Source: Burkholderiaceae bacterium
Lineage (GTDB): Bacteria; Pseudomonadota; Gammaproteobacteria; Burkholderiales; Burkholderiaceae
Direction of reading: 5' to 3'
DNA: 64,000 nucleotides
Assembly (NCBI GenBank): GCA_947452535.1
Contig: CANGCM010000002.1
Span: forward strand, 41,548 to 105,547
Shown here: in pieces, positions 37,763 to 47,432 of the stretch
How the letters are laid out: the number at the start of each line of letters is the position of its first letter
How positions within the stretch are numbered: the first letter of the stretch is position 1
Translations under genes and position numbers: made by a program
The notes under the pieces: model-generated
What the model saw: only the letters and a program-made list of their open reading frames with translations
Told to the model about the DNA's origin: nothing
Database searches by the model: none

Positions 37763-38146
37763 TCAATGTAGATTCTCTTTGAAGGCAACATCAAGCTGGG
37801 TGGCTAGTGCCTGCAAATTTTTATCGAATGTCCAAAGTACGGTATTTTTTGATAGCAGGGTTGAGGCAAGCAGTGAAATATCAACTGCTCCGCAGCCTAA
37901 CTGATAGAGCTTATTTTTCTCTATGAAATCGATTGTCTCTTCTGTTGTCGCTATGGTTGCTTGACGCAAAATTTTTAATTGACTCAACGTTTTTAGTCTC
38001 GGAGCTGGGGGAGATCCGCATGCAAGCTCCAAAATAACTAATGGATGACATAGGATTTGATCATTCACTAAAAGCGACTGTAATGAGAGGTTACCTTTTC
38101 TGAAGTGGGACACCCATACTGAAGTATCAGCCAGAACCATCGTCAT
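37763..38146 (-). CDS. vapC: PIN-domain toxin of a type II TA system (VapC-like)
   Basis: VLADTSVWV, HPLVILELACG, VDISLLAS, LWTFDKNL. Confidence 0.88.
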   Translation of the reverse strand: MTMVLADTSVWVSHFRKGNLSLQSLLVNDQILCHPLVILELACGSPPAPRLKTLSQLKILRQATIATTEETIDFIEKNKLYQLGCGAVDISLLASTLLSKNTVLWTFDKNLQALATQLDVAFKENLH

Positions 38147-39573: not shown

Positions 39574-39605
39574 AAAAAAAGCCCAATCACTGATTGGGCT
39601 TTTTG
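39574..39605. terminator. Bidirectional intrinsic terminator between fbp and cphA
   Basis: AAAAAGCCCAATCA-C-TGATTGGGCTTTTT. Confidence 0.88.
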
Positions 39606-39637: not shown

Positions 39638-42208
39638 TTAGGGCTGAACCTTCTCCTTGAGGTAGGCAAGCGATTCTTCTACCTGATCAATCAGTATGAG
39701 GCAGATATCACCAGCAGATAAATCATTTAGTGCGGTATCAATCGCTAAAAATTCGCCGGTGATTTCTTTTACTTGTTTGGCTTTCTTAGTTCCCACCAAG
39801 CCTTCTCGTAAAAGTTTGAGTACTTCTCCATCTTCGCGGCCTCGTTGACATTGATCTTGGTAGAGGATGACATTATCAAAGCTATTACCAAGGATGCGTG
39901 TGAGATCACGAATATCTTCATCGCGACGATCGCCAGCGCCACTAATCACTACATGACTCTTCTTGGGCTTCATCGCCTCAATGGCACTTGCTAGGGCACG
40001 CATTGCATCAGGGTTATGGCCATAGTCAGCAATGACCGTAGCACCCTTGTGCTGGAATTGATTAAAGCGCCCTGGCACCACATTGGCTGAGCTCTCAAAG
40101 GAGTGAAGTCCACGTGCAATTTTGTCAGCATCCAAGCCTAAGGCCCAGGCTGCACCGATTGACGCCATTGCATTTTCAACTTGGAATCCTAAAACAGCAT
40201 TTTGAGTAAATGGAATTTCACTCACCGGGAAGCGGAAGAGCACGCGTGAGCCTTTGGAGCAGACGATATAAGTGCCATCAAAGTAAATAACCTTTTTATT
40301 TTTGGCGCGATGTGCTGCAATGACAGGATGATGTTGATTCTGCGCAAAGAAAATCACTCTGCCGGTGCAGACATCACCCATTTTCACAACAATCGGATCG
40401 GCGGCATTCAAAACTGCTGCACCAGTTGGCGCGACATTTTGAACTACAACCCTTTTGAGGATTGCCAAGTCTTCAACACTAGCAATGTAGTTGAGTCCTA
40501 GGTGGTCACCTTCACCGATATTGGTAACCACGGCAACCTCACATCGATCAAAGCCTAAACCTTCGCGTAACATTCCACCACGGGCGGTTTCTAGAACTGC
40601 CGCATCCACATCAGGATGCATAAGGACATTGCGAGCACTCTTAGGACCGCTACAGTCACCAGAATCAATTAAGCGATGGTTGATATACACCCCATCGGTA
40701 GTCGTCATACCAACACGTAAGCCAGTCTCATTCAGTAAATGAGCGATAAGTCGGACAGTAGTCGTTTTGCCATTAGTCCCGGTCACCGCTACGACTGGGA
40801 TGCGACCATCTTCGCCTAAGGGATACATCATATTAATGATGTCTTCACCAACGGGTCGACTCTTGCCATAGGAGGGTTTTAGGTGCATCCGTAAGCCTGG
40901 TGCAGCATTGACTTCTACGATGCCGCCGCCTTGACTTTCCAGGGGCTTATAAATAGCCTCACACAGAATATCTACACCAGCGATGTCTAAGCCGATCATT
41001 TGTGCGGCAGCAATTGCGCTGGCGGCAACATCAGGATGTACGTCATCCGTAACATCAGTTGCTGTGCCACCAGTACTCAGGTTGGCGTTATTACGTAGCA
41101 GAACACGTTCACCGGTTTTAGGTACATATAGCGGGCTCAAGCCATTGCTCGCTAAATGCGTCAGAGCAATATCATCAAAACGAATCTTGGTTAAGGCGGT
41201 TGCGTGGCCATCACCCCGCAATGGATTTTTATTTTCTAGTTCAACGAGCTGAGCAACACTCAGCTTGCCATCGCCAACAACTTGCGCAGGTTCGCGTCGT
41301 GCTGCGGCCGAGAGACGATTGCCCACAACCAGGAGGCGATAGTCGGCTCCAGGAAGGTAGCGCTCAACGATCGTTTCACGACCAAAAGCTTGGGTCACTG
41401 TAAAGCCAGCGCGCACTTCTGCTTCGGTTTGAATATTAGCAACCACACCTTTACCTTGGTTGCCATCTTTTGGCTTTAGCACAATCGGTCCGCCAATATT
41501 TTGCGCTACGCGCCACGCATCATCAGCGGTGGTGACTACATCACCGATCGGCACGGATACCCCAGCGGCAGCCAATAAATTCTTGGTGAGTTCTTTATCT
41601 TGAGCAATGGCTTCTGCAATTGCGCTAGTGTCACTAGTCTCAGCCGCTTGGATCCGTTTTTGTTTGCTACCCCAACCAAATTGCACCATGCTGCCTTCAG
41701 TCATGCGGCGAAAGGGGATGTTTCTTTGCACAGCAGCATCCACAATAGATCCAGTGCTTGGTCCTAGGCGAACATCCTCATACAGAGCTTCTAATTCTGA
41801 TAGGGCGGCAGCAAGGTCAAACGGTACATCACTAAGAGTTGCTTGAATCAGTGCAAATGCAAAGTCAAACGCCATGCGCCCCACAACTTCCTCGGAGTAC
41901 TCCACCACAACTTGGTAGACACCCACCTCAATCGTTTGCACTGTGCGACTAAAGGTAACAGGGCAGCCTGCTTGAGACTGAAGACCTAGCGCAGCATGTT
42001 CGAGCGCATGGGCTAAGGACAGGGTTTCGTTATGACCACCGCGACGCATGCTCCCTAATTGAGGAAAGCGTTCACGGATCTTGTTTTCAAATTGCGGAAT
42101 CGAATCGATTGAACGCTCCGATTCTTCACAAGAAACAATTGCCTCTAGGGCGGTATGGCGACTCCATAAATTGGGGCCGCGTAGCATTCGAATACGGGTG
42201 ATTTCCAA
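39638..42208 (-). CDS. cphA: Cyanophycin synthetase, full length (betaproteobacterial CphA3 type)
   Basis: RGPNLWS, LGPSTGSIV, ATP-grasp KPKDGNQGKGV / NANLSTGG / EVNAAPGLRMH, Mur-ligase GTNGKTT, LETARGG, DHLG, DYGHNPDA. TTG start with SD AGGGG. Confidence 0.93.
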   Translation of the reverse strand: MEITRIRMLRGPNLWSRHTALEAIVSCEESERSIDSIPQFENKIRERFPQLGSMRRGGHNETLSLAHALEHAALGLQSQAGCPVTFSRTVQTIEVGVYQVVVEYSEEVVGRMAFDFAFALIQATLSDVPFDLAAALSELEALYEDVRLGPSTGSIVDAAVQRNIPFRRMTEGSMVQFGWGSKQKRIQAAETSDTSAIAEAIAQDKELTKNLLAAAGVSVPIGDVVTTADDAWRVAQNIGGPIVLKPKDGNQGKGVVANIQTEAEVRAGFTVTQAFGRETIVERYLPGADYRLLVVGNRLSAAARREPAQVVGDGKLSVAQLVELENKNPLRGDGHATALTKIRFDDIALTHLASNGLSPLYVPKTGERVLLRNNANLSTGGTATDVTDDVHPDVAASAIAAAQMIGLDIAGVDILCEAIYKPLESQGGGIVEVNAAPGLRMHLKPSYGKSRPVGEDIINMMYPLGEDGRIPVVAVTGTNGKTTTVRLIAHLLNETGLRVGMTTTDGVYINHRLIDSGDCSGPKSARNVLMHPDVDAAVLETARGGMLREGLGFDRCEVAVVTNIGEGDHLGLNYIASVEDLAILKRVVVQNVAPTGAAVLNAADPIVVKMGDVCTGRVIFFAQNQHHPVIAAHRAKNKKVIYFDGTYIVCSKGSRVLFRFPVSEIPFTQNAVLGFQVENAMASIGAAWALGLDADKIARGLHSFESSANVVPGRFNQFQHKGATVIADYGHNPDAMRALASAIEAMKPKKSHVVISGAGDRRDEDIRDLTRILGNSFDNVILYQDQCQRGREDGEVLKLLREGLVGTKKAKQVKEITGEFLAIDTALNDLSAGDICLILIDQVEESLAYLKEKVQP

Positions 42209-42216
42209 TTAAGCCC

Positions 42217-44400
42217 CTACTGGATGCTGGCATCAGAAACAAAGGTTTCAGCGCCAGCCTCGATAACGTTAAATGGAATGCCTAAGGCCCAAGCTGCCCC
42301 AATTGCAGCACCGAGATTCATGGGTTTCCATGGCTCATTCGTATTTGGCTCAGAGTGGTGTGGCACAGGAATACTCTTTTGATCTAGCTTGCCAGATTTC
42401 AAGGTAATTTGCTGATTGCCAATAATAACAACGCGACCACCATTTTTTAAGTGCTCTTGTGTAATAGGGGATGAAGAATCTTGGGTAAAAAAGATGACTT
42501 CGCCATCACACAGCTCCGCCATTTTTGCAACTAGAGGGTCGTCTGCATTGAGAACAGCAACACCAGTTGGTAGCACAACATCCACTTGCGTTCTGACGAT
42601 GCTAAAGACCTGGTCCTCATCAAAAATAGCGTACTGAGGAAAGTTGGCTGTTGGGTCTATGTTCATCACAACACCTACTTGGCAGCGGTCATAGGCAAGA
42701 CCTTCGATCAACATGGATAAATTGTTATTCTCGATAACGGCTGCTTCAACAGCGCGATTTAGCAAAGTACGGCGGGCATTTTCCCAATTAGCAGCATTGC
42801 TCTTTTGGATTGAGCGGTGACCAAAAAATAAACCTTTGCTACAAGAAAGGCCAACATATAAATTAGTCAGTCGCAGAAAGTGCGCAATCATTTCAGCGAC
42901 AGGGGTTTTACCTCGTGCGCCACATACACCCACCACTGGAATGCGGAAATCCGTTCCTGGTGGAAAGAGGTGATCGGTAATTGCTTTGCCAACAGGCTGA
43001 GGTTTACCGCTCGCTGGTTTTAAGTGCATCAATAAGCCAGGACCAGCATTCACTTCTACAATGGCGGCATTCTGTCCTTCTAGGGGCTTGCTGATATCTT
43101 GGGCCACAAGATCAACGCCCGCGATTTCCAATCCAACCACGCGTGCAGCTAAGGCAACCTGACTAGCTACCTCAGGGTGGACTAGGTCGGTGACATCAAA
43201 GGCCATATTACCGTTGCTCTGAATCAGTACTTTTTGATCAAGAGTCGGAACACTGGAACCAGTCAACTTTTGGCGCGCAAGCTCTAACTCGACCGCAGAA
43301 TCAATGCGAACTGGGTTGAGTGGGCACTCTTCAGTTGTACCACGACGTGGATCAGAGTTAATTTGAATTTGAATCAACTCTAGAACGGTATTTTTTCCAT
43401 CACCTGTGACCCAAACGGTTTCACCCTTAGCGGCTGCAACCACTTTATTACCCACTACGAGTAGACGGTGCTCATCACCAATAATGTGGCGCTCAACCAA
43501 GACCTCGCTACCCTCATCAATCGCTACCGCGTAAGCAGCTTTAATTTCTTGTTGGGTGTAGAGATTAATAAATACTCCACGACCGTGATTGCCATCAATC
43601 GGCTTCACTACAACGGGTAATCCAATGTCCTGTGCTGCTTCCCAGGCATCATCGGGACTAGTGACCGTGCGACCCTCAGGGGTTGGCACTCCCGCGCTTG
43701 CTAGAAGGCTCTTCGTCAGATCCTTGTCGCGAGAAATCGTTTCCGCGATGGCGCTAGTTTGATCGGTTTCTGCTGTCCAAATGCGACGCTGATTCGCGCC
43801 ATAACCCAGTTGCACTAAGTTACCTTCGGATAGACGGATAGAGGGTATTCCGCGTTCTTCTGCTGCGTTAACGATGCAAGCAGTGCTAGGTCCAAGCAAT
43901 AGATCATCGCCAAGATCGCGTAGTTCTTTAACGATGGTAGCAACCAGTGTGACTGGATCTTGGGTATCTTGGGCTAAGGCAAGATATAAGTCGCGAGCAT
44001 ATTTCAGCGCAGTGAGAGTCACCTCTTCATTGATGGCGCTTACCATCACTTTGTAAACACTGCGACGATCGCCGTCACGTGCCTTACCAAATCCACCCGG
44101 AATACCAGATAAATTTTGTAATTCAAGGGTGAGGTGCTCAAGGATGTGAGCAGGCCAGGTGCCTTCTTCAACTCTTTTGAGGAATCCACCAGCTTCGCCA
44201 TAACTACAGCGGTGTTCTTGCAAGCTAGGGAGTGCCTTTACAAGACGATCATAAAACCCAGGAATCAGGTTGGAGGGGTAGTCCTCCAAGTCGCCGATAT
44301 CGACCCAAACCTCAATGACAGGATGATATGTCCACATATTGGGGCCGCGGAGATGCTTGACGCTCAAGATCTCGATGGTTTTATCTAGTAATTGGGGCAT
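42217..44400 (-). CDS. cphA: Cyanophycin synthetase paralog, C-terminally shortened (CphA3'-type)
   Basis: RGPNMW, HRCS..GGF..R...GT..HILEH, LGPSTACIV, KPIDGNHGRGV. Mur-domain P-loop is degenerate (GARGKT). Start at ATG 44400 or GTG 44427. Confidence 0.88.
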   Translation of the reverse strand: MPQLLDKTIEILSVKHLRGPNMWTYHPVIEVWVDIGDLEDYPSNLIPGFYDRLVKALPSLQEHRCSYGEAGGFLKRVEEGTWPAHILEHLTLELQNLSGIPGGFGKARDGDRRSVYKVMVSAINEEVTLTALKYARDLYLALAQDTQDPVTLVATIVKELRDLGDDLLLGPSTACIVNAAEERGIPSIRLSEGNLVQLGYGANQRRIWTAETDQTSAIAETISRDKDLTKSLLASAGVPTPEGRTVTSPDDAWEAAQDIGLPVVVKPIDGNHGRGVFINLYTQQEIKAAYAVAIDEGSEVLVERHIIGDEHRLLVVGNKVVAAAKGETVWVTGDGKNTVLELIQIQINSDPRRGTTEECPLNPVRIDSAVELELARQKLTGSSVPTLDQKVLIQSNGNMAFDVTDLVHPEVASQVALAARVVGLEIAGVDLVAQDISKPLEGQNAAIVEVNAGPGLLMHLKPASGKPQPVGKAITDHLFPPGTDFRIPVVGVCGARGKTPVAEMIAHFLRLTNLYVGLSCSKGLFFGHRSIQKSNAANWENARRTLLNRAVEAAVIENNNLSMLIEGLAYDRCQVGVVMNIDPTANFPQYAIFDEDQVFSIVRTQVDVVLPTGVAVLNADDPLVAKMAELCDGEVIFFTQDSSSPITQEHLKNGGRVVIIGNQQITLKSGKLDQKSIPVPHHSEPNTNEPWKPMNLGAAIGAAWALGIPFNVIEAGAETFVSDASIQ

Positions 44401-44610
44401 ATGTGGAATGGGTAGTCTTAGCACCACCTCAGGAGGTGAGAGCGGGGATAAGTCAGGCTGTCTCTCTAGTTCTTATAATTATTCTAAATCCACAAAATTG
44501 GCAAAAATACTTAAAAAAGCCCATATTGATAATTTAACGGCTTTCCGCCCTCTAAAGTTGACAGAGCCACTAAATCTAAAAAATGGAGCTCCACTATACT
44601 TTTAGGACTA

Positions 44611-46959
44611 ATGAAGCTAGAAATTTCCCCATCCACAACGCCTATACCAAGTAATTGGGCTAGCGCTTTGATGGGATCTCAGCCACCCGTCAAAGACTTT
44701 GACTCAATGCTGGCATGGGTTGAGCTGGATCTCGATGGTGAAATGCGCTTTAAAAAAAGCCTGCTTTGCTTGCTTCCTACAGGGCTATTTTGGACCGACG
44801 GCACCCGCTCAGAATTCTGGCCGATAAGCTCTGGGGCACATCTTCTTCACGGCGATCATGCTGGAGTAGGTCATCTCAAACTGGAGTCTCAGACTAGTCT
44901 ACTCAGACTTTGGCATTTCACACTGGCAGTGAACCCGCAAATACTTCGCCTCCAAAGTAGTTTTAAGCAGTTGATGCGAGGTGATTTAGAGAGTCAGGAT
45001 CCAAAGGCATCTGAATACGATAAGCAGGTTTGCCCTGCCTGTTTAAGTCCTAAGCCTACCAATTCCGATATTTGCCCTACTTGCGATCCCGAGGAGGATG
45101 CGCCTCCCTCTACTTGGACCTTGTTTAAGTTGTGGCGTTTTGCTCGCCCCTATAAAAAAGAGCTGTTACTAGGTTTTATTCTGACTTTACTGTCAACGGG
45201 TGCAACCTTAATTCCGCCTTACTTGACGATGCCTTTGATGGATCATGTATTAATTCCTTATGAAAAAGGGAATCCGATTGATTTTGATTTGGCAAGCAAA
45301 TACTTAATCGCTTTATTTGCAGCTGCCGTGGTGGCATGGGGCTTGGGTTGGTGGAAAACCTACCTCCTCGCATTGGTGAGTGAGCGCATTGGGGCGGATT
45401 TACGCAACACGACTTTTGAGCATCTACTTAAGTTGTCTTTGGAGTATTTTGGCGGCAAAAGAACGGGTGATTTAATTGCGCGCATCGGCGCTGAGACGGA
45501 TCGTATTTGTGTATTTCTATCCCTCTACGCGCTAGACTTTGTAACCGATGTAATCATGATCACCATGACTGCAGCGATCTTGGTTTCGATTGATCCCTTG
45601 CTTGCTCTAGTGACACTTGCACCCTTACCATTTATTGTCTGGATGATTCATGTAGTGCGAGACAAACTCCGTTTTGGTTTTGAGAAGATCGATCGTATCT
45701 GGTCTGAGGTAACTAATATCTTGGCCGATACGATTCCAGGTATTCGGGTTGTTAAAGCCTTTGCTCAGGAAGAGCGTGAGCTCAAGCGTTTCGTAGATTC
45801 CAATAAACATAATTTACAAATTAATGATCGCGTAAATCGCGTGTGGGGATTATTCTCGCCAACGGTCACCCTTTTAACTGAAACAGGTCTCTTAGTGGTG
45901 TGGGGATTTGGTATTTGGCAGGTGGCTCATCAAAAAGTAACCGTAGGCGTGCTCATTGCCTTCCTTGCTTATATTGGACGCTTTTATATTCGCCTAGATT
46001 CAATGAGCCGGATTGTTTCACATACACAAAAAGCAGCTGCGGGAGCAAAACGTATCTTTGATATTTTGGATCACGTTTCTAGCGTCCCTGAGCCCATTAA
46101 TCCGGCGCCTTTAGGCCCAGTTAAAGGCCGTATCTCCATGCGGGGCGTCGGTTTCCGCTATGGTAACCGCGCTGTATCCAAGGGAATTGATCTCGATATT
46201 GCCCCGGGAGAAATGATTGGCTTAGTTGGTCATAGTGGTTCCGGTAAAAGTACTCTAGTGAACTTGATTTGTCGCTTCTACGATGTGAGTGCTGGCTCGA
46301 TCGCTTTAGATGGGCGCGATATTCGTAGTATTGGAATCGCAGACTATCGCAAGCGTATTGGTTTAGTTCTGCAGGAACCCTTTTTGTTTTTTGGCACGAT
46401 TGCAGAAAATATTGCTTATGGCAAATCCGATGCAACACGCGAAGAAATTATCGAAGCAGCACGCGCTGCACATGCTCATGAATTCATTCTCCGCCTACCA
46501 CTAGCTTATGACTCGCTAGTAGGAGAGCGCGGTCAATCACTTTCGGGTGGGGAGCGTCAGCGTATTTCGATTGCACGTGCATTGCTGATTAACCCCAGTA
46601 TTTTGATTTTGGATGAAGCTACTTCTTCAGTAGATACGACCACCGAAAAAGAAATCCAACGTGCTTTAGATAATCTAGTTAAAGGCCGTACTACGATTGC
46701 AATTGCCCATCGCCTTTCTACTCTTAGAAAAGCGGATCGCCTGGTGGTGCTCGATAAAGGCGAGATCGTGGAGATTGGTCCACACGATGAGTTAATGAAT
46801 CAGCAGGGCGCATATTACGCCCTGTATCAGGCACAACTTCGCCATGCTGCAGAGCTCGTTGAGGGCGGCGCTATTGGCGAAAGTATTGAAGAGAGTGAGA
46901 TTAAGGTCGAAGCAGAGCGCTTAGAGTTGATTGCCAGGCAAAAAAGAGGTGAGGTATGA
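44611..46959 (+). CDS. ABC exporter (TMD+NBD fusion) with N-terminal extension and CxxC-x10-CxxC zinc ribbon; cyanophycin-locus-associated
   Basis: GHSGSGKST, LSGGERQR, ILDEATS, IAHRLST, six-TM exporter domain, CPACLSPKPTNSDICPTC. Confidence 0.9.
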   Translation: MKLEISPSTTPIPSNWASALMGSQPPVKDFDSMLAWVELDLDGEMRFKKSLLCLLPTGLFWTDGTRSEFWPISSGAHLLHGDHAGVGHLKLESQTSLLRLWHFTLAVNPQILRLQSSFKQLMRGDLESQDPKASEYDKQVCPACLSPKPTNSDICPTCDPEEDAPPSTWTLFKLWRFARPYKKELLLGFILTLLSTGATLIPPYLTMPLMDHVLIPYEKGNPIDFDLASKYLIALFAAAVVAWGLGWWKTYLLALVSERIGADLRNTTFEHLLKLSLEYFGGKRTGDLIARIGAETDRICVFLSLYALDFVTDVIMITMTAAILVSIDPLLALVTLAPLPFIVWMIHVVRDKLRFGFEKIDRIWSEVTNILADTIPGIRVVKAFAQEERELKRFVDSNKHNLQINDRVNRVWGLFSPTVTLLTETGLLVVWGFGIWQVAHQKVTVGVLIAFLAYIGRFYIRLDSMSRIVSHTQKAAAGAKRIFDILDHVSSVPEPINPAPLGPVKGRISMRGVGFRYGNRAVSKGIDLDIAPGEMIGLVGHSGSGKSTLVNLICRFYDVSAGSIALDGRDIRSIGIADYRKRIGLVLQEPFLFFGTIAENIAYGKSDATREEIIEAARAAHAHEFILRLPLAYDSLVGERGQSLSGGERQRISIARALLINPSILILDEATSSVDTTTEKEIQRALDNLVKGRTTIAIAHRLSTLRKADRLVVLDKGEIVEIGPHDELMNQQGAYYALYQAQLRHAAELVEGGAIGESIEESEIKVEAERLELIARQKRGEV

Positions 46960-47432
46960 ACCATCATCAAAAACCCCATACGCTTGAGCGAGATTTGCTT
47001 GGTCGCCTCATATTGATTGATGCTAGTGGAGTTCGTCATGTGGGCGTTTATCCCGTTAGGGCTTTTCCGATTACCGCACCAGGCGCAGGAATCTCCATCA
47101 TGAATCAATCCGGCAAAGAGTTGTGTTGGTTTGATGGCAGTAAGTCGATCCCAGAATCTGAATTAGCGCTCATCGAAGAAGAAATGGCGGCACGCGAATT
47201 CATGCCTGTCATTGAAAAAATTACCAAAGTATCCACGTTTGCCACGCCAAGTATTTGGGATATTGAAACCGATCGTGGTCCGACCAGAATTCGCCTTAAG
47301 GCCGAGGAAGATATCCGCAGAATCGCTGGTAATACATTGCTGATCGCTGACTCCAATGGCCTGCAATTTTTGATCAAAGATTCCACTGAGCTGGATAAAG
47401 TCAGCAAGAAGATTTTGGACCGATTCCGCTAG
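46956..47432 (+). CDS. DUF1854-family protein
   Basis: PVRAFPITAP, REFMPVI, WDIETDRG, EEDIRR, LLIAD..G..F.I. ATGA overlap with the ABC gene. Confidence 0.82.
   Translation: MNHHQKPHTLERDLLGRLILIDASGVRHVGVYPVRAFPITAPGAGISIMNQSGKELCWFDGSKSIPESELALIEEEMAAREFMPVIEKITKVSTFATPSIWDIETDRGPTRIRLKAEEDIRRIAGNTLLIADSNGLQFLIKDSTELDKVSKKILDRFR

Follow-up and report, generated by a model that had tools for sequence, protein, structure and literature searches.

The 64,000-nucleotide stretch analysed here (the window), which is part of contig CANGCM010000002.1 in the Burkholderiaceae bacterium assembly GCA_947452535.1, carries two adjacent paralogues of the cyanophycin synthetase CphA1 between which the active-site motifs of that enzyme are divided. 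The source is a metagenome-assembled genome of 1.79 Mb and 75% completeness, and a genome-collection scan places its nearest relatives in Polynucleobacter. The short paralogue, cphA' (P0001), is called S below and the long one, cphA (P0002), is called L; the two proteins are 41% identical across 727 residues. A preliminary description of this DNA, made from the sequence alone, had placed two open reading frames (ORFs) here with complementary losses of active-site motifs, and both ORFs were found where it put them and every motif it quoted was confirmed by translation. The genes and the sites in question are as follows, with "Su" marking the residue numbering of SuCphA1.

42217..44427, reverse strand: S (cphA'), 736 amino acids from a GTG start, with N domain, G domain and M core and no M lid
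39638..42208, reverse strand: L (cphA), 856 amino acids, full N-G-M architecture including the M lid (ORF list, translation, Pfam)
42209..42219, reverse strand: S-L junction, with the S TAG stop, 8 nucleotides and the L TTG start (sequence)
44134..44214, reverse strand: Cx19HxxEH metallopeptidase site of the S N domain, in which C74, H94, E97 and H98 equal Su C59, H79, E82 and H83
43576..43596, reverse strand: P-loop of the S G domain, DGNHGRG, with His281 (Su His267) retained
43198..43221, reverse strand: shortened G-omega large loop of S in place of NANLSTGG, a 4-5 residue deletion that takes the Asn394 region
43030..43056, reverse strand: Mg-ligand motif E-V-N of S, retained, with Leu466 replacing Su Arg458 (translation, alignment)
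42904..42921, reverse strand: P-loop of the S M domain, GARGKT, still GxxGKT here and degenerate in other genera
41996..42064, reverse strand: N-site remnant of L, with the Cys59 region deleted; its HxxEH persists in Polynucleobacter and has decayed elsewhere
41447..41467, reverse strand: P-loop of the L G domain, DGNQGKG rather than DGNHGRG, with Gln251 at Su His267

An alternative ATG start for S lies nine codons downstream of the GTG (44398-44400). A purine-rich, Shine-Dalgarno-like run, AGGGG, overlaps the S stop codon just before L, and implies that S and L would be translationally coupled. In relatives, L immediately follows S or overlaps it.

Both proteins were aligned to SuCphA1 (7LG5) and TeCphA1 (7WAC), and their residues were judged by published mutagenesis (PMC9262961, PMC9427784). 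Each is homologous to SuCphA1 over its full length (E = 1e-147 for S and 1e-182 for L). L passes both family models, with 1001.9 bits against TIGR02068 (cut-off 850) and 1212.4 bits against NF010623 (cut-off 877), and aligns end to end with 7WAC and 7LG5. S passes NF010623 with 1004.5 bits and fails TIGR02068 with 700.9 bits; it is a divergent member of the NF010623 subfamily only, the equivalog TIGR02068 not being reached. The cyanophycin-synthase N domain, ATP-grasp and Mur_ligase_M are recognised by Pfam in both proteins, while Mur_ligase_C (PF02875) is found in L only, at residues 713-838. The S chain ends at approximately Su residue 725, where Mur_ligase_C would begin, and the M lid is absent.

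The N-domain site of SuCphA1 cuts nascent cyanophycin into primers, a function that the mutation E82Q abolishes, and enzymes without this site are primer-dependent (Sharon et al. 2022, PMC9262961). S has the complete residue set of this primer-generating metallopeptidase at exact spacing (Cys59, His79, Glu82, His83, His57, Arg70), with its H72 and R85 equivalent to Su H57 and R70. The exact Cx19HxxEH that the preliminary description had read at 44134-44214 is upheld by the alignment to 7LG5, as is its statement that the N domain of L is without the Cys, which falls in a region deleted from the remnant at 41996-42064.

The G domain of S retains His267, Arg309, Asp431, Glu450 and Asn452 (Su numbering), a point that the preliminary description had overlooked. 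Its losses concern the Asp substrate, which in CphA1 is positioned by the Asn394 region of the large loop and recognised by Arg458; H267, R309, N394 and R458 all matter for G activity, and a mutant lacking the M lid is strongly impaired (PMC9427784). In the M domain of S, the GxxGKT P-loop and Glu558 are present, while Asp585-His586 (DHLG), ETARGG/ARGG and the whole lid are absent. S falls short of both the G catalytic set of CphA1, with the loop and R458 gone, and the M catalytic set. A loop shortened relative to NANLSTGG, the lack of ETARGG and DHLG and an end before the last Mur lobe, where PF02875 is found in L only, had all been read correctly from the sequence. GARGKT had been counted among the losses as well; the motif is there, yet it still fits the Mur-ligase pattern GxxGKT, and the P-loop Lys has been lost only in other genera.

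L holds all of the G and M motifs (NANLSTGG, GTNGKT, ETARGG and DHLG), and its M catalytic set is complete. Its G catalytic set is complete save for the replacement of His267 by Gln, so that neither S nor L has the full canonical G set. The synthetic motifs of L had earlier been described as intact, which is right for each of those listed; the protein as a whole is not, H267Q having been overlooked. Both S and L carry a Glu one residue before the position of Su Glu215, and Glu215 was not used as evidence.

This division was followed across two samples of relatives. The first, from the genome-collection scan, comprised 80 loci, mostly from Polynucleobacter with others from Rhodocyclaceae, Achromobacter, Pandoraea, Herbaspirillum, Glaciimonas, Gallionella, Dechloromonas and Accumulibacter, in which 78 S and 73 L orthologues were scored. 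The second drew on 401 Burkholderiales genomes, from which 60 regions were taken and yielded 51 S and 49 L from approximately 45 further genomes. Every S of the first sample has C59 and HxxEH (78/78), His267 (100%), the loop deletion (78/78) and a replaced R458 (78/78), with a variable M P-loop and the lid absent in 75 of 78. Every L has the Cys deleted and Gln at 267 (73/73 for both), and NANLSTGG, GTNGKTT, ETARGG and DHLG are each present in 73/73. The same motif partition holds for the 51 S and 49 L of the second sample, where 47 of the 49 L have Gln267, and in orthologues of both samples the residue of S at Su 458 is L, I, M or Q and never R. The N-site of S together with 12 neighbouring residues (16 positions) is 100% conserved and identical to that of canonical enzymes. 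In L there is an 11-residue deletion at the N-site, and H83, E82, R70 and R102 drift, H83 being mostly Phe or Ala in the wide sample. Six single-copy canonical CphA1 of the second sample keep all sites in one chain. The complementary pattern thus holds in both samples of betaproteobacterial pairs, the comparison that the preliminary description had named as a check on its proposal. As for the division of labour that it had proposed, complementary retention proves universal and old, while S is not simply the synthetase-dead protein of its wording and L is not wholly intact.

The Gln of L merits separate comment, since H267A is a published G-inactivating mutation of SuCphA1 (PMC9262961) and all four solved, active CphA1 enzymes carry His at this position in the alignment. 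We considered whether the replacement marks a dead G domain and find this unlikely, as the Gln is strongly conserved, two L keep the His and other intact CphA-like genes share the Gln. Gln267 is probably tolerated in L, because Gln itself is conserved and is present in CphA-like genes that are otherwise intact (L093, L128). The two L-type orthologues of 49 that keep His267 within DGNHGRG are L109:2517-5093 and L139:2466-5240, and both residues seem tolerated in the polymerase partner. The genes at L093 (genome G152) and L128 (G355) belong to a second locus that these genomes have besides the S/L pair, formed by two facing CphA-like genes, both without the N-site, both with Gln267 and otherwise with intact G and M motifs, a CphA arrangement of a different kind.

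The two genes also occur together. A CphA N domain is found in 128 of the 401 Burkholderiales genomes, and in 113 of the 128 it occurs as an adjacent pair of a strong (S) and a weak (L) match. Thirteen have a single match with a canonical-strength N-domain score, with listed ORFs of approximately 870-1025 amino acids save in one fragmented assembly, and two have four matches. No L-type gene without an S-type gene was found among these 128 genomes. S lies directly upstream of L on the same strand in 77 of 80 related loci and in 53 of 60 order-sample regions, in both samples all of those in which the two genes were recovered, and the pair is confined to Burkholderiales in a phylum-wide sample. 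It is very improbable that S is a decaying duplicate without a function of its own. Eroded M motifs and the lost lid would fit decay, but no sampled locus has a broken S ORF, the N and G domains of S are conserved at least as well as their counterparts in L, the order of the genes does not vary across Burkholderiales and S has fitness phenotypes in other species (10.1101/072470), so that the conservation data effectively refute this reading.

Two further arrangements were seen in these samples. A subfamily of full-length S in Achromobacter, Pandoraea and further Burkholderiales (L067, L073, L083-L085, L088, L089, L108, L120, L124, L125, L132-L134, L136, L137) keeps GTNGKT, with one GSNGKT and one GINGKT, and DHLG, and is without ARGG; its members are approximately 865-908 amino acids long except for L120 (816 amino acids), and in most of them traces of the lid motifs can still be recognised. 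The subfamily appears to represent an earlier or intermediate stage of M-domain decay. At L101, L116, L117 and L118, a single-copy canonical CphA1 with three intact sites is followed by an ORF of 585-651 amino acids that weakly resembles the M region and may be a CphA2-like or Mur-ligase-like partner.

In a tree rooted on the canonical single-copy CphA1 of Burkholderiales, S and L are each monophyletic and the clade that joins them has support 1.0. Because S and L are monophyletic and jointly form one clade, the pair traces to one old duplication that was followed by division of the sites. Taking residues, tree and characterised enzymes together, we put at about even the chance that the S/L pair is a primer-making peptidase and a polymerase split from one three-site CphA1. 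One ancestral three-site cyanophycin synthetase would have duplicated and its jobs would have been divided. L would be the polymerase, its G domain adding Asp and its complete M domain adding Arg, and with its N-domain peptidase site destroyed it would on its own behave like the primer-dependent TmCphA1. The intact Cx19HxxEH metallo-site of S would cut nascent chains into short (beta-Asp-Arg)n primers. Without DH, ARGG and the lid, S would be unable to add Arg, and the deletion of its large loop together with the loss of R390 and R458 would keep it from binding incoming Asp. It would most likely still bind ATP and the C-terminus of the polymer, and assemble with L or as its own oligomer, because the ATP, Mg and acyl-phosphate residues and a folded G and M core are kept. 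The peptidase activity of S, the primer dependence of L and a physical complex of the two are what we infer from the partition. There is an experimental parallel, in that SuCphA1 with dead G and M domains, supplied in trans, renders the primer-dependent TmCphA1 primer-independent in vitro (PMC9262961). That arrangement is exactly the one predicted for the S/L pair, which by this analogy would be its natural version. The division of labour is thus well supported by comparison of sequences and by this published experiment.

Constraint is not evenly distributed over the domains of S. Mean pairwise identity among S orthologues is 0.66 for the N domain, 0.69 for the G domain and 0.50 for the M core, the M lid being absent in most and not applicable, and among L orthologues it is 0.60, 0.72, 0.68 and 0.73 for the N domain, G domain, M core and M lid. 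Near-invariant columns make up 39.0% of the G domain in S versus 40.3% in L, and 11.7% of the M core in S versus 32.8% in L. In S, then, constraint has relaxed on the M domain and stands level with L on the G domain. S had been called synthetase-dead, which agrees with its M domain and its Asp binding and disagrees with its ATP-grasp core, as conserved as that of L. The G-domain changes specific to S are the loss of STGG from the loop, three Arg replaced by neutral residues, Su Arg390 and Arg458 among them, and small substitutions at four positions (S-to-N, A-to-T, D-to-E and A-to-G); Arg390, Arg458 and the loop are the elements that position the incoming Asp. The only L-specific G-domain change relative to canonical enzymes is His267-to-Gln.

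These figures bear on a different account of S, which we regard as possible though rather doubtful, namely that S has remained an ATP-grasp ligase but works on a new acceptor. Deprived only of the elements that bind Asp, its G domain would phosphorylate the C-terminus of the polymer and join it to something other than free Asp, for instance an acceptor in the envelope, a different amino acid or an oligomer. In that case S and L together would make a modified polymer for export and not cyanophycin for storage, and the N-site could trim or release it. His267, Arg309, Asp431, Glu450 and Asn452 are 100% conserved in S, constraint on its G domain is about that on L's, and four S-specific G changes fall at mapped positions in or beside the elements that position incoming Asp, all in keeping with such a ligase. 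On the other hand, N393 and S395 of the large loop are essential in CphA2 even for a larger nucleophile (PMC10273328), and a G domain without this loop may simply be inactive. The ATP site could also be conserved for structural or regulatory reasons, and no candidate acceptor is evident in the locus. A reading of S as a CphA2-like dipeptide polymerase was rejected, since S has lost the very loop residues that CphA2 cannot do without (PMC10273328).

An AlphaFold2 model of S, built with 31 orthologues, has a mean predicted local distance difference test (pLDDT) of 86.3 and a predicted template-modelling score (pTM) of 0.81, and the truncated M core exceeds a pLDDT of 90. Its best matches in the PDB are CphA1 structures, with template-modelling (TM) scores of 0.84-0.85, followed by CphA2 at 0.59-0.65. 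By this model, S is a folded three-domain protein and not a remnant. The G and M cores form the dimer or oligomer interface in solved CphA1 and CphA2 structures (PMC10273328), and S could accordingly be imagined as a non-catalytic pseudoenzyme that scaffolds, stabilises or regulates L, for example by sensing ATP or polymer, with its N-site unused. The high-confidence fold of its M core despite dead motifs would suit such a role, as would the purifying selection that is apparent in all domains: among Polynucleobacter orthologues, the ratio of nonsynonymous to synonymous substitution rates (dN/dS, omega) is approximately 0.03-0.05 in every domain of both genes, with dS saturated at about 1.5. 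A scaffold, however, has no need of C59, H79, E82, H83, H57, R70, E87 and R102 at 100% conservation throughout Burkholderiales when they have decayed in L, and we think the pseudoenzyme unlikely.

The surroundings of the pair add a transporter and its companion, together with candidate transcription signals:

44611..46959, forward strand: cyanophycin metabolism-associated ATP-binding cassette (ABC) transporter, fused permease and ATPase (NF052233), divergent from S
46956..47432, forward strand: cyanophycin metabolism-associated DUF1854 protein, its start overlapping the end of the ABC gene by 4 nucleotides
44475..44504, reverse strand: sigma-70-like promoter match with weak consensus agreement, in the divergent intergenic region upstream of S
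39576..39604, reverse strand: terminator-like hairpin with a 13-bp stem and T run, 34 nucleotides past the L stop and before the convergent fructose-bisphosphatase (FBPase) gene

The transporter scores 1314.6 bits against NF052233 (cut-off 880) and has the Pfam domains ABC_membrane and ABC_tran; PF00664 begins only at residue 185, so that approximately 160-180 N-terminal residues are outside Pfam domains. The DUF1854 protein scores 211.6 bits against NF052234 (cut-off 150) and matches PF08909. The ABC gene adjoins S/L in essentially every related locus with enough flank, and the DUF1854 gene is kept beside it. Promoter-like matches upstream of S are rarer than in shuffled sequence, and the promoter call is only suggestive. 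T runs flank both sides of the hairpin between the convergent cphA and FBPase genes, and it is probably a bidirectional terminator. Farther along, between the aminopeptidase N and FBPase genes, a reverse-strand ORF of 127 amino acids (37763-38146) matches nothing in Pfam or NCBIfam; by tblastn, only about a quarter of related Polynucleobacter loci have it, at 61-88% identity, which makes it a variable small gene.

Cyanophycinase (PF03575, Peptidase_S51) was not found in the window genome, at 75% completeness, or in three 100%-complete Polynucleobacter genomes. Its absence here matches the 2.8% rate at which cyanophycinase occurs among 903 beta-proteobacterial genomes with cphA1, a near-absence that was called unanticipated in 2023 (PMC10206079). 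The isoaspartyl dipeptidases IadA (TIGR01975 above cut-off) and IaaA (PF01112) were likewise not found in the window genome or the three complete congeners. The missing Peptidase_S51 and the low beta-proteobacterial rate would fit an S that serves as a catabolic endo-cyanophycinase, standing in for CphB in the mobilisation of stored polymer instead of producing primers, and the preliminary description had raised such a replacement. The missing cphB agrees with that suggestion, but the dipeptidases that would complete the degradation were not found either, which weakens it. Moreover, cleavage at the N-site is inherently slow and gives oligomers rather than dipeptides (PMC9262961), S is translated together with the synthase instead of being regulated against it, and cphA' behaves like cphA in fitness assays and not in opposition to it (10.1101/072470). 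We consider a catabolic S quite improbable.

The same absences (of cyanophycinase, IadA and IaaA) are what a ligase with a changed acceptor would lead one to expect, as is the exporter that the cluster always includes. Price et al. (bioRxiv 10.1101/072470) reported cofitness of cphA, cphA', the ABC transporter and the DUF1854 gene in two beta-proteobacteria, noted phenotypes in motility and stress, and proposed an exported polymer. The lack of detectable cyanophycin from the C. necator genes (PMC8560796) points the same way. In its fullest form, to which we give a similarly minor share of our belief, S would be re-specialised so that its ATP-grasp core joins or caps the C-terminus of the polymer with a non-Asp acceptor and its N-site sets the length, and the four genes would produce a modified Asp/Arg polymer of defined length, which the ABC/DUF1854 proteins would pump out to the envelope, with no storage granule. 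If this is true, export of a modified polymer explains the missing cyanophycinase and dipeptidases, the Cupriavidus result and the motility and stress phenotypes.

Several points weigh against the split into a primer-making S and a polymerising L. Adames 2013, as reported in PMC8560796, detected no cyanophycin from the pair of Cupriavidus necator H16, either in its native host or in E. coli; the polymer made may be something other than ordinary cyanophycin, or a further component may be required. L has Gln at the position of His267, where the Ala mutant of SuCphA1 is inactive. The perfect conservation of the ATP-grasp catalytic residues of S exceeds what a pure peptidase or scaffold needs. With dS saturated at the value given above, dN/dS is unreliable and cannot rank the domains, and amino-acid conservation was used instead. 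Lastly, an S-L fusion, which would give Rosetta-stone support for a complex, was not found in a search of 5.8 billion proteins for longer proteins.

Two candidates for such a fusion were set aside. The only strong match, P0003, is a protein of 1493 amino acids from one metagenome contig in the European Nucleotide Archive (ENA), and it is of another CphA type with another order. It combines a CphA-like G+M unit, cut at its N-terminus, with another CphA-like unit that has its M domain out of frame, and it is probably a gene-calling or frameshift artefact. The other, an open frame of 1575 amino acids at the S gene of G133, is a long upstream open frame in a GC-rich genome in which S and L are separate.

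Comparison with known systems places the window closest to the beta-proteobacterial cphA'/cphA/ABC/DUF1854 cluster, of which Cupriavidus necator H16, Acidovorax sp. 3H11 and C. basilensis 4G11 are examples (Adames 2013, cited in PMC8560796; 10.1101/072470; NF052233, NF052234). The window has the same four genes in the same order and orientation, the same short upstream paralogue and no cyanophycinase, and does not differ from them structurally; the present analysis contributes the partition of the three CphA1 active sites, read at the level of residues. The pair of C. necator H16 bears the locus tags H16_A0775 and H16_A0774. SuCphA1 (7LG5, 7TXV; PMC9262961) shares Cx19HxxEH and its surroundings with S, and its G and M chemistry with L. 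It has three sites in one chain, while here a live N site is predicted only in S and live G and M sites only in L. Unlike SuCphA1, L has Gln for His267, and S is without the large loop, R458, DH, ARGG and the M lid. The primer-dependent TmCphA1 of Tatumella morbirosei (7LGN) and AbCphA1 of Acinetobacter baylyi (7LGM) resemble L in having no Cx19HxxEH while keeping G and M. Both keep His267, unlike L. Neither is known to be encoded together with an S-type partner. CphA2 (7TA5, 8FXH; PMC10273328) is like S in overall shape, with N, G and a truncated, dead M domain kept as structure. Its G domain is live with an intact large loop (N393 and S395 essential) and its N domain is dead, the opposite of S in both respects.

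The window is an ordinary orthologue of a published cluster that is common in Burkholderiales, and the pair, its exporter neighbours and the missing cyanophycinase were already known. No published statement of the partition into complementary sites was found in the papers searched. New here are the His267-to-Gln replacement in L, the Arg losses of S, the domain-wise constraint figures and the count in which L never stands alone.

For approximately two decades, annotation has treated cphA' as a second or degenerate cyanophycin synthetase and given it no role. The split into primer maker and polymerase offers it a testable one and turns an old puzzle into a few simple experiments. If it is true, the natural division of an enzyme with three active sites would parallel in vivo what Sharon et al. 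2022 achieved by adding a protein in trans, and it would explain why heterologous expression of beta-proteobacterial cphA alone has failed. In cyanophycin production, the supply of primers, and hence chain length and yield, would become tunable apart from polymerisation. For the bacteria themselves, an ATP site conserved in S and an exporter that is always present suggest that the product of these genes may be no storage polymer at all.

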